NCBI RefSeq assembly: GCF_003334815.1
Contig: NZ_QOWO01000083.1
Direction: 5' to 3' (one strand)
Source: Escherichia coli
GTDB taxonomy: Bacteria; Pseudomonadota; Gammaproteobacteria; Enterobacterales; Enterobacteriaceae
DNA: 3,340 bases
The stretch's first letter is position 1; each line of letters begins with the position of its first letter. The position numbers and the translations under genes are program-made. Shown one piece after another: positions 1-3,340 of the stretch. The notes below the pieces were generated by a model. It did no database searches. It was given only the letters and a program-made list of their open reading frames with translations, and was not told where the DNA came from.

Positions 1-102
1 GCTGAACTGTTGCTGGAAGACTACAAAGCCTCCCTGAAATATCTCAGCGATCACCCGAAACTGCAGGGTATTGCCCAACAGAACAGCTTTAAACATACCT
101 GA
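1..102 (+). CDS. gadB: 3' end of glutamate decarboxylase (partial; N-terminus lies upstream of the window)
   Basis: Frame 1 is open from base 1 and translates to [33 protein letters not shown], ending at TGA 100-102 with a second in-frame stop TAA at 103-105. This matches my memory of the E. coli GadA/GadB C-terminus; gadB rather than gadA is inferred because gadC follows directly. Identity is from recall, not a search. Confidence 0.85.
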
Positions 103-122
103 TAACGTTTAACGGTAACGGT

Positions 123-148
123 GTCCCGAAACGAACCCGTTTCGGGAC
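123..148 (+). other. Stem-loop in the gadB-gadC intergenic RNA: 11-bp perfect stem (GTCCCGAAACG / CGTTTCGGGAC) with 4-nt loop AACC, no U-tract after it
   Basis: Direct reading: bases 123-133 are the exact reverse complement of 138-148. The downstream sequence is AATTTCC, so it is not a canonical intrinsic terminator; it could be a partial attenuator, a processing site, or a 3' stabiliser of the gadB message. Confidence 0.5.
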
Positions 149-191
149 AATTTCCAAAGTCTGTTCACTGGCATTAGCAACGGAAAATATT

Positions 192-212
192 GTTCTGAAT
201 ACGCTTCAGAAC
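192..212 (+). promoter_or_regulatory. Perfect 8-bp inverted repeat GTTCTGAA-N5-TTCAGAAC in the gadC leader
   Basis: Direct reading: 192-199 is the reverse complement of 205-212, with spacer TACGC. It sits about 45 nt upstream of the gadC start. Function is unknown; it could be an RNA hairpin or a dimeric protein-binding site. Confidence 0.3.
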
Positions 213-246
213 AAAACAGGTGCGGTTCCGACAGGAATACCGTTTT

Positions 247-252
247 AGGGGG
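247..252 (+). promoter_or_regulatory. Shine-Dalgarno sequence for gadC (AGGGGG)
   Basis: Purine-rich AGGGGG ends 5 nt before the ATG at 258, which is canonical spacing. Confidence 0.7.
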
Positions 253-257
253 ATAAT

Positions 258-1793
258 ATGGCTACATCAGTACAGACAGGTAAAGCTAAGCAGCTCACAT
301 TACTTGGATTCTTTGCCATAACGGCATCGATGGTAATGGCTGTTTATGAATACCCTACCTTCGCAACATCGGGCTTTTCATTAGTCTTCTTCCTGCTATT
401 AGGCGGGATTTTATGGTTTATTCCCGTGGGACTTTGTGCTGCGGAAATGGCCACCGTCGACGGCTGGGAAGAAGGTGGTGTCTTCGCCTGGGTATCAAAT
501 ACTCTGGGGCCGAGATGGGGATTTGCAGCGATCTCATTTGGCTATCTGCAAATCGCCATTGGTTTTATTCCGATGCTCTATTTCGTGTTAGGGGCACTCT
601 CCTACATCCTGAAATGGCCAGCGCTGAATGAAGACCCCATTACCAAAACTATTGCAGCACTCATCATTCTTTGGGCGCTGGCATTAACGCAGTTTGGTGG
701 CACGAAATACACGGCGCGAATTGCTAAAGTTGGCTTCTTCGCCGGTATCCTGTTACCTGCATTTATTTTGATCGCATTAGCGGCTATTTATCTGCACTCC
801 GGTGCCCCCGTTGCTATCGAAATGGATTCGAAGACCTTCTTCCCTGACTTCTCTAAAGTGGGCACCCTGGTAGTATTTGTTGCCTTCATTTTGAGTTATA
901 TGGGCGTAGAAGCATCCGCAACCCACGTCAATGAAATGAGCAACCCAGGGCGCGACTATCCGTTGGCTATGTTACTGCTGATGGTGGCGGCAATCTGCTT
1001 AAGCTCTGTTGGTGGTTTGTCTATTGCGATGGTCATTCCGGGTAATGAAATCAACCTCTCCGCAGGGGTAATGCAAACCTTTACCGTTCTGATGTCCCAT
1101 GTGGCACCAGAAATTGAGTGGACGGTTCGCGTGATCTCCGCACTGCTGTTGCTGGGTGTTCTGGCGGAAATCGCCTCCTGGATTGTTGGTCCTTCTCGCG
1201 GGATGTATGTCACAGCGCAGAAAAACCTGCTGCCAGCGGCATTCGCTAAAATGAACAAAAATGGCGTACCGGTAACGCTGGTCATTTCGCAGCTGGTGAT
1301 TACGTCTATCGCGTTGATCATCCTCACCAATACCGGTGGCGGTAACAACATGTCCTTCCTGATCGCACTGGCGCTGACGGTGGTGATTTATCTGTGTGCT
1401 TATTTCATGCTGTTTATTGGCTACATTGTGTTGGTTCTTAAACATCCTGACTTAAAACGCACATTTAATATCCCTGGTGGTAAAGGGGTGAAACTGGTCG
1501 TGGCAATTGTCGGTCTGCTGACTTCAATTATGGCGTTTATTGTTTCCTTCCTGCCGCCGGATAACATCCAGGGTGATTCTACCGATATGTATGTTGAATT
1601 ACTGGTTGTTAGTTTCCTGGTGGTACTTGCCCTGCCCTTTATTCTCTATGCTGTTCATGATCGTAAAGGCAAAGCAAATACCGGCGTCACTCTGGAGCCA
1701 ATCAACAGTCAGAACGCACCAAAAGGTCACTTCTTCCTGCACCCGCGTGCACGTTCACCACACTATATTGTGATGAATGACAAGAAACACTAA
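258..1793 (+). CDS. gadC: Glutamate:gamma-aminobutyrate (GABA) antiporter, APC superfamily, acid-resistance system 2
   Basis: Uninterrupted 512-codon ORF (511 aa plus TAA) with a strong SD. The translation is highly hydrophobic with many predicted transmembrane segments. The N-terminus [22 protein letters not shown] and the His/basic-rich C-terminal tail ending [10 protein letters not shown] match my memory of E. coli GadC (XasA). Position directly after gadB fits the gadBC operon. Confidence 0.96.
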
Positions 1794-1817
1794 CCATGTC
1801 TGAATGGTTATAAGACA

Positions 1818-1846
1818 AGGGAGCGATAATTCATCGCTCCCTTTTT
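1818..1846 (+). terminator. Rho-independent terminator of the gadBC transcript
   Basis: Direct reading: 10-bp GC-rich stem AGGGAGCGAT (1818-1827) / ATCGCTCCCT (1833-1842), 5-nt loop AATTC, then a run of five T (1842-1846). It starts 25 nt after the gadC stop codon. Confidence 0.8.
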
Positions 1847-1862
1847 CGTGCTTGCTGTCGTA

Positions 1863-1891
1863 TTGACTTAACGGGGATAAGTACGAGAATG
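1863..1891 (+). promoter_or_regulatory. Candidate sigma70-type promoter for the downstream lipoprotein gene: -35 TTGACT (1863-1868), about 16-bp spacer, -10-like GAGAAT (1885-1890)
   Basis: Direct reading. The -35 matches consensus at 5 of 6 positions and the -10 at 4 of 6, including the conserved A2 and T6. It lies between the gadC terminator and the 1924 start codon. The -10 is weak, so this is speculative. Confidence 0.25.
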
Positions 1892-1923
1892 AGCGCACAT
1901 CTGTTTACCGGAAACCAGCACAT

Positions 1924-3243
1924 ATGGATATCTGCTCCCGAAACAAGAAATTAACGATTAGAAGACCAGCGATACTAGTTGCACTGGCACTTTTACTGTG
2001 TAGTTGTAAAAGCACGCCTCCAGAGTCCATGGTGACACCACCAGCAGGTTCAAAGCCACCAGCCACGACGCAACAATCGTCACAACCGATGCGTGGCATC
2101 TGGCTGGCCACGGTTTCTCGGCTCGACTGGCCACCGGTTTCCTCGGTTAACATTAGTAACCCCACCAGCCGGGCCCGTGTACAACAACAGGCGATGATCG
2201 ACAAACTGGATCATCTGCAACGTCTCGGCATAAACACGGTCTTTTTCCAGGTCAAGCCGGACGGTACCGCCCTGTGGCCATCGAAAATTTTGCCGTGGTC
2301 CGATCTTATGACCGGTAAGATTGGTGAAAATCCGGGTTACGATCCGCTGCAATTTATGCTCGACGAAGCCCACAAGCGTGGGATGAAAGTACACGCCTGG
2401 TTTAACCCCTATCGCGTATCGGTTAATACGAAGCCCGGTACTATCAGGGAACTGAATAGCACTCTGTCTCAACAACCGGCGAGCGTCTATGTGCAACACC
2501 GCGACTGGATCAGAACGTCTGGCGATCGCTTTGTCCTCGACCCGGGCATCCCTGAGGTTCAGGACTGGATCACATCAATAGTCGCAGAAGTGGTTTCCCG
2601 CTATCCCGTAGATGGCGTGCAGTTTGACGACTATTTCTATACGGAGTCACCGGGTTCACGGCTAAATGATAACGAAACGTACCGTAAATACGGAGGCGCA
2701 TTTGCGTCAAAAGCAGACTGGCGGCGCAACAATACTCAGCAGTTAATTGCAAAGGTATCGCACACCATTAAAAGCATTAAGCCGGGAGTCGAATTTGGTG
2801 TTAGCCCGGCAGGCGTGTGGCGTAACCGATCACACGATCCGCTCGGTTCCGATACCCGAGGCGCGGCAGCCTATGACGAATCCTACGCTGACACCCGTCG
2901 ATGGGTGGAACAAGGATTGCTGGATTACATTGCTCCCCAAATTTACTGGCCGTTCTCACGGAGTGCCGCGCGTTATGACGTGTTGGCAAAATGGTGGGCG
3001 GATGTCGTTAAACCGACCAGGACCCGCCTGTATATCGGTATCGCCTTCTATAAAGTGGGTGAACCTTCAAAGATAGAGCCAGACTGGATGATTAACGGCG
3101 GCGTACCGGAACTGAAAAAGCAGCTCGATCTTAACGATGCTGTGCCCGAAATTAGCGGCACCATCTTGTTCCGTGAGGACTATCTGAATAAACCGCAGAC
3201 TCAACAAGCGGTCAGCTATCTGCAAAGTCGCTGGGGCAGTTAA
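1924..3243 (+). CDS. digH: Outer-membrane lipoprotein with a glycoside-hydrolase-like family 10 (GHL10) domain; divisome-associated glycan hydrolase YddW/DigH
   Basis: Uninterrupted 440-codon ORF (439 aa plus TAA). The N-terminus has a basic n-region (SRNKKLTIRR), a hydrophobic core (PAILVALALLL), and a Cys-containing lipobox-like motif (LLCSC), followed by a Pro/Ser/Thr-rich linker. The rest is a soluble domain rich in aromatic and acidic residues, typical of a TIM-barrel glycosidase fold. Size and position next to gadC match E. coli yddW as I recall it. There is no in-frame start between the upstream stop (1864-1866) and ATG 1924, and none between 1924 and the lipobox, so the start is well constrained even though the SD is weak (GGAA about 10-13 nt upstream). 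Confidence 0.9.
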   Translation: MDICSRNKKLTIRRPAILVALALLLCSCKSTPPESMVTPPAGSKPPATTQQSSQPMRGIWLATVSRLDWPPVSSVNISNPTSRARVQQQAMIDKLDHLQRLGINTVFFQVKPDGTALWPSKILPWSDLMTGKIGENPGYDPLQFMLDEAHKRGMKVHAWFNPYRVSVNTKPGTIRELNSTLSQQPASVYVQHRDWIRTSGDRFVLDPGIPEVQDWITSIVAEVVSRYPVDGVQFDDYFYTESPGSRLNDNETYRKYGGAFASKADWRRNNTQQLIAKVSHTIKSIKPGVEFGVSPAGVWRNRSHDPLGSDTRGAAAYDESYADTRRWVEQGLLDYIAPQIYWPFSRSAARYDVLAKWWADVVKPTRTRLYIGIAFYKVGEPSKIEPDWMINGGVPELKKQLDLNDAVPEISGTILFREDYLNKPQTQQAVSYLQSRWGS

Positions 3244-3276
3244 ACTCCCATTCTTACTTTGTACTGATGAATCCCC

Positions 3277-3300
3277 TAATGATTTTTATCAAAATCATTA
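3277..3300. promoter_or_regulatory. Perfect AT-rich palindrome TAATGATTTT-N4-AAAATCATTA in the intergenic region downstream of digH
   Basis: Direct reading: 3277-3286 is the exact reverse complement of 3291-3300, with spacer TATC. It is too AT-rich and lacks a GC stem and T-run, so it is not a convincing intrinsic terminator; a dimeric regulator-binding site in the next gene's promoter region is more likely. By recalled synteny the next gene would be dosC, whose start is outside the window. Confidence 0.3.
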
Positions 3301-3340
3301 AGTTAAGGTAGATACACATCTTGTCATATGATCAAATGGT

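Follow-up and report, generated by a model that had tools for sequence, protein, structure and literature searches.

A near-invariant gadC leader carrying a candidate stem-loop in the gadB-gadC spacer of Escherichia coli

Introduction

Intercistronic stem-loops can set segmental mRNA stability or expression ratios, as in the malE-malF REP hairpins and in papBA processing. The 5′ UTR of ompA provides an example of a 5′-proximal hairpin that acts as an mRNA stabilizer. For LysR-type regulators, including MetR, we take the operator consensus to be TGAA-N5-TTCA, with the T-N11-A pattern.

The gadBC genes form the core of the strongest acid-resistance system of E. coli, and work on their regulation has dealt almost exclusively with the gadB promoter and leader. 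In the literature, gadBC is treated as one operon, gadC being co-transcribed from the gadB promoter. Here, we describe the spacer between the two genes and focus on an inverted repeat, hereafter named dyad 2, of which no description was found in the literature searched.

Dyad 2 shares several features with the intercistronic stem-loops. It is located in the untranslated gap of a two-gene operon whose first gene, gadB, has its own hairpin-defined 3′ end. It has a stable stem and a free loop, and analogous hairpins are present in unrelated gadBC spacers. Unlike the malE-malF REP hairpins, it is single-copy, does not belong to the REP family and is not positioned at a mapped 3′ end. In a manner similar to that of ompA-type stabilizers, it directly follows an AU-rich single-stranded stretch. 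Dyad 2 can also be compared with LysR/MetR operators, since its core matches all 8 specified bases within a candidate 15-bp dyad with a variable spacer. Unlike such operators, it has no promoter in the usual register and carries C, instead of A or T, at its centre. To our knowledge, there is no link between MetR and gadBC. As in intrinsic terminators, a U-rich run comes after the stem on the minus strand; in contrast to these, the stem is G+C-poor and no 3′ end is mapped there on either strand. Finally, as in RBS-sequestering leaders (RNA thermometers, translational operators), the hairpin lies upstream of a start codon, but it contains neither the Shine-Dalgarno (SD) sequence nor the AUG and ends 33 nt upstream.

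Results

Organization of the locus and transcript ends

The window (the whole stretch of DNA that was analysed, 3,340 nt) is the gadB′-gadC-digH region of K-12. Positions 1-3263 are those of E. coli K-12 MG1655 (reverse complement of NC_000913.3), the sole exception being a synonymous SNP at 1211 (gadC codon 318, GTC versus GTA relative to MG1655). K-12 coordinates are obtained as 1570747 - p, where p is the position in the window. The features are as follows.

1-102, plus strand: 3′ end of gadB, identical to MG1655 gadB; stop codon TGA at 100-102, translation ending in ...QQNSFKHT
103-257: gadB-gadC spacer, 155 nt, untranslated (K-12 1570490-1570644)
122-149, plus strand: hairpin 1, a perfect 12-bp stem with a 4-nt loop, followed by AAUUU (-20.7 kcal/mol)
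152-156 with 181-185, plus strand: proposed stem UUCCA/CGGAA from the RNAalifold consensus, enclosing a 24-nt loop (157-180)
190-214, plus strand: dyad 2, 10-bp stem and 5-nt loop (K-12 1570533-1570557, minus strand)
200-204, plus strand: loop of dyad 2, site of C204T, the only common leader polymorphism in E. coli
222-243, plus strand: hairpin 3, GCGGUUCC-GACA-GGA..ACCGU, found in the single-sequence centroid fold and in the consensus fold; ends 4 nt before the SD
247-253 and 258-260, plus strand: gadC SD (AGGGGGA) and start codon
258-1793, plus strand: gadC, starting at the annotated K-12 gadC start
1817-1847, plus strand: gadC intrinsic terminator (hairpin 1817-1843), an 11-bp stem and a U run, identified by inverted repeat, fold and Term-seq
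1924-3243: digH
From 3264: IS10-type end

In the curated Term-seq table of Adams et al. 2021 (PMC7815308, supplementary file 1), 1568900(-) and 1570594(-) are consecutive 3′ ends, with none between them. The former corresponds to window position 1847, at the gadC terminator (70,553 reads), and the latter to position 153, just past hairpin 1 and its AAUUU (33,816 reads), each count being that of a row for one of three growth conditions. Because no 3′ end lies between 153 and 1847, RNA polymerase reads through dyad 2 into gadC. The spacer is co-transcribed with gadC, and the full gadBC transcript ends at 1847. The 3′ end at 153 indicates that hairpin 1 is either a real partial terminator or the 3′ end of a gadB-only RNA. 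About half as many reads map to this end as to that of the gadC terminator, suggesting a sizeable transcript of gadB alone.

In the same table, no 3′ end is found at dyad 2 on either strand, including near K-12 1570560. An intrinsic terminator on the plus strand was rejected: the stem is followed by AAAACAGG, which has no U run, the terminator scan does not call it, and Term-seq gives no 3′ end. Small open reading frames were searched for on both strands of the spacer. No ATG with an SD was found, the only candidates being GTG ORFs of 18 and 33 amino acids and a TTG ORF of 23 amino acids.

Geometry and stability of dyad 2

The earlier note had described a perfect 8-bp dyad made of GTTCTGAA (192-199), TACGC (200-204) and TTCAGAAC (205-212), all of which we find at these positions. 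The perfect dyad is in fact two pairs longer, with 10-bp arms TTGTTCTGAA (190-199) and TTCAGAACAA (205-214) surrounding the 5-nt loop TACGC. It had rightly been called the second repeat of the leader, since a stronger 12-bp dyad occupies 122-133/138-149. Its position within 50 nt of the ribosome binding site (RBS) is also correct, with the dyad ending at 214, the SD at 247-253 and the AUG at 258-260.

The significance of dyad 2 was estimated with dinucleotide-preserving shuffles, counting perfect inverted repeats with a loop of 3-8 nt. At least 8 bp are reached in 1.9% of the shuffles of the 155-nt spacer, and at least 10 bp in 0.1% (P ~0.001). For the whole 3340-nt window, the expected numbers of inverted repeats are 0.31 (at least 8 bp) and 0.02 (at least 10 bp). 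As a 33-nt plus-strand RNA, dyad 2 folds with -10.9 kcal/mol (z = -6.5; none of 200 shuffles reached this stability); the corresponding values are -11.8 kcal/mol and z = -5.1 on the minus strand. The fold of the whole gadB-gadC spacer has a z of -3.2 relative to shuffles. In total, four stem-loops fill the spacer (122-149, 152-185, 190-214 and 222-243).

Dyad 2 occurs at a median of one place per E. coli genome. A REP/BIME element, for which many copies per genome are expected, was discarded on this basis. A scan of 103-257 against Rfam gave no family match, even at E-values up to 10.

Relation to the gadC ribosome binding site

Dyad 2 lies outside the ribosome footprint, its end being 33 nt upstream of the SD and 44 nt upstream of the AUG. 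In the thermodynamic model, the wild-type RBS (246-260) has a predicted probability of being unpaired of 0.80. A hairpin that masks the RBS was therefore rejected, as the stem ends at 214 and includes neither the SD nor the AUG, with a predicted RBS about 80% unpaired. Thus, from the earlier suggestion of a leader hairpin, the non-random arrangement and the stable fold are retained, but direct masking of the RBS is not, the stem lying 33 nt upstream of the SD.

When one arm was scrambled in silico (150 scrambles each), the cost of opening 246-260 rose from 1.2 to 2.6 kcal/mol for the left arm and to 3.3 kcal/mol for the right one. With scrambles that preserve the stem, the cost stays at 1.2 kcal/mol. 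In addition, AUAUUGUUCU (187-196) is predicted to pair with GGGGAUAAUAU, which comprises the SD and the AUG, at -8.5 kcal/mol. The left arm is complementary to the RBS no more than expected by chance (P = 0.38), so the effect of arm scrambling corresponds to generic insulation, without a designed switch.

These results bear on the idea that dyad 2 is one state of a leader switch, in which cytoplasmic acidification or an sRNA would free the left arm (187-196) for pairing with the SD and AUG. Such a switch would use the -8.5 kcal/mol pairing of AUAUUGUUCU with GGGGAUAAUAU, and scrambling of the right arm does lower the predicted accessibility of the RBS. A·C or C·A mismatches are moreover present in two helices of some lineages (see below), A·C pairs can be stabilized by protonation, and the operon works at low internal pH. 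Nevertheless, we judge a switch quite improbable: the anti-RBS complementarity does not exceed chance, the E. coli stem is free of mismatches and, with its -10.9 kcal/mol, far outcompetes the alternative pairing, and no trigger was identified.

Search for a promoter and an operator at dyad 2

The earlier note also proposed that the dyad could be an operator for an internal gadC promoter, and pointed to the hexamers TTCACT (164-169) and AAATAT (185-190). Both hexamers are present but are only 15 nt apart, and the promoter scan does not call them. No promoter-like site passes at or just upstream of dyad 2. The only one called in the spacer lies at 228-257 and would start transcription inside gadC; on the minus strand, none was found in the whole window. 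A transcription start site (TSS) between 150 and 250 had been suggested as a check. In the TSS table of Kim et al. 2012 (PMC3415461), the digH (yddW) TSS is directly followed by the gadB TSS and no gadC start is listed between them, a weak negative given that the catalogue is small. With no promoter called by the scan and no TSS listed by Kim et al. 2012, the proposed operator and internal promoter are left unsupported.

A modified version of this proposal was considered, in which dyad 2 is the operator of a dimeric, possibly LysR-type regulator of a weak gadC promoter that starts inside the dyad (TTCACT at 164-169, a 16-nt spacer and AATATT at 186-191). This spacing places the +1 at about 198-200, a typical repressor position, and both candidate hexamers are invariant across species. 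Moreover, TGAATACGCTTCA (196-208) matches the consensus TGAA-N5-TTCA once in the window for 0.06 matches expected, and the half-sites are 5 bp apart in 6 of 7 Escherichia lineages with a spacer of variable sequence. Against these points, the match involves 8 specified bases, the hexamer pair scores 8/12 and escapes the scan, and no TSS separates those of digH and gadB in the Kim 2012 list. Co-transcription of gadC from the gadB promoter, as described in the literature, and the variable spacing of the analogous second dyads in other genera also argue against an operator, as does the lack of a RutR box. Overall, we regard an operator as improbable.

Specific DNA-binding sites were also searched for. 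RutR is reported to target gadBC, but its box gave 0 matches at up to 3 mismatches. By inspection, the LexA-type pattern CTG-N10-CAG is off by one base in its spacing, and the sigma-54 -24/-12 pattern does not fit the invariant block. The GadEWX ChIP-exo text names only the gadB promoter region.

Conservation of the leader within E. coli

The 108-nt leader that contains dyad 2 (150-257) has at most 1 mismatch in 5,397 of 5,409 E. coli records (99.8%), and about 92% of the records are identical. Segments of the same length behave very differently: at most 1 mismatch is found in 64% of records for 42-149 (3′ end of gadB and hairpin 1), in 66% for 258-365 (5′ coding part of gadC) and in 30% for 1797-1904 (gadC-digH spacer). 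For the flanking segments 42-149 and 258-365, only about one quarter of the genomes are identical to K-12.

In the 53 nt centred on the dyad (176-228), 365 of the 5,409 records differ from K-12. Exactly one change, C204T at the last base of the loop, accounts for 321 of them, leaving 44 records with any other change. The other rare variants seen are A187G, A218T, T244C and G248A, none of which falls within the arms of dyad 2. Hence, in E. coli the stem is fixed and the loop is free, and the leader sequence is under strong constraint. The earlier view that the dyad is unlikely to be idle is reasonable in this respect, since it is embedded in sequence under strong purifying selection. The near-invariance of the 108-nt gadC leader is the most striking result of this study; dyad 2, as a hairpin, is an ordinary element. 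Importantly, the invariance extends to the unpaired linkers, which suggests sequence-specific recognition by some factor, beyond folding alone.

Conservation between Escherichia species

E. coli was compared with E. albertii, E. whittamii and four further lineages; labels such as L002 denote loci of this comparison. The leader (150-257) diverges from that of E. coli by 6-10%, and by 2% in the closest lineage, L002. At gadC four-fold sites, the closest lineage diverges by 11% and the remaining five by 30-39%. Dyad 2 is the most variable part of the leader (15 of 150 positions, 10%) and 154-189 is the least variable stretch (6 of 216 positions, 2.8%). Within dyad 2, 7 of 30 loop positions (5 nt in 6 species) and 8 of 120 arm positions differ from E. 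coli. The loop variants among Escherichia are TACGC, CACGC, GGCAC and GGCAT. The core CTGAA-N5-TTCAG is constant among the species compared, except for a 1-nt deletion in one assembly (L002).

Stem pair 4 is U-A in E. coli, C-G in L004, U·G in L001 and C·A in L003, L005, L082 and E. albertii; a second mismatch is carried by the E. albertii dyad. A perfect dyad is thus limited to E. coli and one other lineage, the sister species having one or two mismatches, which weakens any claim that perfection itself is required. The mismatched stem is probably ancestral, with E. coli and L004 having reached perfect pairing by different substitutions, and the perfect stem of dyad 2 appears to be recent.

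Among 13 sequences, one pair of dyad 2 covaries, eight are invariant and one shows only loss of pairing. The covarying pair (U-A to C-G) corresponds to a single compensatory event and is a C·A mismatch in 4 of the 13 sequences. As judged from this alignment, the covariation is too small to prove an RNA helix, and with only one covarying pair the comparative data do not separate a hairpin from an operator.

The neighbouring stem-loops were compared in the same way. Hairpin 1 contains four pairs with compensatory changes across Escherichia. The closing pair of the 152-185 stem is G-C in 3, A-U in 2 and A·C in 8 sequences. The 24-nt loop that this stem encloses (157-180, AAGTCTGTTCACTGGCATTAGCAA) is unchanged in all 13 Escherichia sequences sampled, and a metagenome scan with this invariant 24-mer returned 14 loci, of which nearly all have the K-12 sequence and one is a new variant. 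Hairpin 3, between dyad 2 and the SD, has 99% of its cells paired and 7 of its 8 pairs invariant.

On the plus strand, the predicted energy of the dyad 2 hairpin ranges from -5.5 to -13.5 kcal/mol across Escherichia and is reduced to between -5.5 and -6.6 kcal/mol in E. albertii, E. whittamii and related lineages. On the minus strand, it is near -12 kcal/mol in most of those lineages, -7.6 in E. albertii and -4.8 in L002. The minus-strand energies are more even because C·A becomes G·U. This greater uniformity would fit a minus-strand intrinsic terminator for an antisense transcript coming from inside the 5′ end of gadC. Antisense RNAs are known elsewhere in the acid-resistance network (GadY, ArrS), and the terminator scan does call dyad 2 on the minus strand, where the 10-bp stem is followed by TATTTTCC. 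On the other hand, only 3 of the 10 stem pairs are G-C, the variants of L001 and L002 point to the plus strand, and neither a promoter-like site nor a gene is found upstream on the minus strand. In addition, the Term-seq table shows no minus-strand 3′ end near K-12 1570560. An antisense terminator is thus very improbable.

A further alternative is that the sequence is conserved rather than the pairing. The 108-nt leader would then be a platform to which a factor binds in trans, for instance an sRNA together with Hfq, or an RNA-binding protein such as CsrA, and dyad 2 would be incidental or nearly neutral. Several observations point in this direction: invariance is as marked in the unpaired stretches, among them the 24-nt block 157-180, as it is in the stems, no part of the leader varies more between species than dyad 2 (10% versus 2.8% for 154-189), and the probable ancestral state of the dyad has a mismatch. 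GGA motifs are present at 182-184, 234-236 and 251-253, and the leaders of gadA and gadB are known targets of CsrA (PMC11210196). Against this alternative, the arms are fixed in E. coli next to a variable loop, and the mismatch was independently repaired in two lineages. Moreover, the spacer matches no Rfam family, and among the rows listed for EPEC RIL-seq there are no gadB.gadC.IGR chimeras, only ArcZ-gadC ones inside the coding sequence. We consider a platform with an incidental dyad unlikely.

The gadB-gadC spacer in other genera

From genera other than Escherichia, we collected 39 gadB-gadC spacers with a length of 78 nt or more, whose sequences are unrelated to that of E. coli. A strong hairpin usually follows the gadB stop codon in these loci. 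The second-best hairpin has a z below -2 in 38% of the 39 loci, and averaging over 25 genera gives a mean z of -1.45 (t ~-3.6).

In a Providencia group (L026, L028, L029, L032 and L036), a second dyad keeps its arms, ATCAGT/ACTGAT, around a loop of 3-7 nt. It is located 26-35 nt upstream of gadC, between the terminator-like hairpin of gadB and the gadC SD. Its position is analogous to that of E. coli dyad 2 and its sequence is unrelated. The variable loop fits an RNA hairpin better than an operator with fixed spacing, and this bears on E. coli by analogy only.

Discussion

We tentatively propose that dyad 2 is a constitutive structural stem-loop of the gadBC read-through mRNA, a reading that we hold with a little less than even confidence. 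RNA rather than DNA would be the active form, and we infer roles in insulation of the RBS and in protection from nucleases. Dyad 2 would then be the DNA image of an RNA stem-loop of 10 bp with a 5-nt loop in the untranslated spacer, acting neither as a terminator nor as an RBS mask. By pairing with each other, its arms would keep the long gadC leader compact, leaving the SD and the AUG single-stranded. The stem-loop would also limit the access of nucleases to the untranslated gap.

A possible extension of this structural role involves RNase E. Conjecturally, the AU-rich linker GGAAAAUAUU (182-191) might be an RNase E entry site, with processing at about 189. Cleavage in this linker could make dyad 2 a 5′-proximal protective hairpin. 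After a putative cut at A187-U188/A189, which fits RN|WUU, 1 nt would separate the new 5′ end from the stem of dyad 2; several occurrences of this motif in the gadB-gadC spacer are expected by chance.

About half of the 3′ ends of the locus lie just after gadB, so that GadC output depends on read-through and on the action of the 105-nt leader. The leader is far more conserved than the neighbouring DNA, and the ratio of decarboxylase to antiporter may therefore be controlled post-transcriptionally at this point. A bolder reading, which we regard as a long shot, is that 150-257 is an undescribed cis-regulatory RNA leader that sets GadC synthesis independently of GadB on the same transcript, triggered by a trans-acting RNA or protein or by cytoplasmic pH. 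The A·C mismatches in two helices of the sister species would fit pairing stabilized by protonation. If dyad 2 is a passive structural element, the finding is routine.

Other observations

In the EPEC E2348/69 RIL-seq table, the rows listed include at least 13 ArcZ-gadC chimeric fragments within the gadC coding sequence (1673035-1673075), as well as Spot 42 chimeras with the pqqL-gadB spacer.

At the other end of the window, the match to K-12 stops 20 nt past the digH stop codon. There, an IS10-type terminal sequence starts (CTGATGAATCCCCTAATG..., 3264-3340), placing the insertion upstream of the K-12 digH terminator hairpin. On the minus strand, this region partially matches Rfam RNA-OUT with 35.3 bits, which falls short of the gathering score; the match is clipped by the end of the window. 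The junction between digH and the IS10-type sequence had 0 matches in the 5,426 complete E. coli genomes searched.

Upstream of digH, a promoter-like TTGACT-16-GAGAAT is found at 1863-1897, with the +1 expected at about A1897. This site agrees with the yddW (digH) TSS with a 27-nt 5′ UTR in the supplement of Kim et al. 2012 (PMC3415461).
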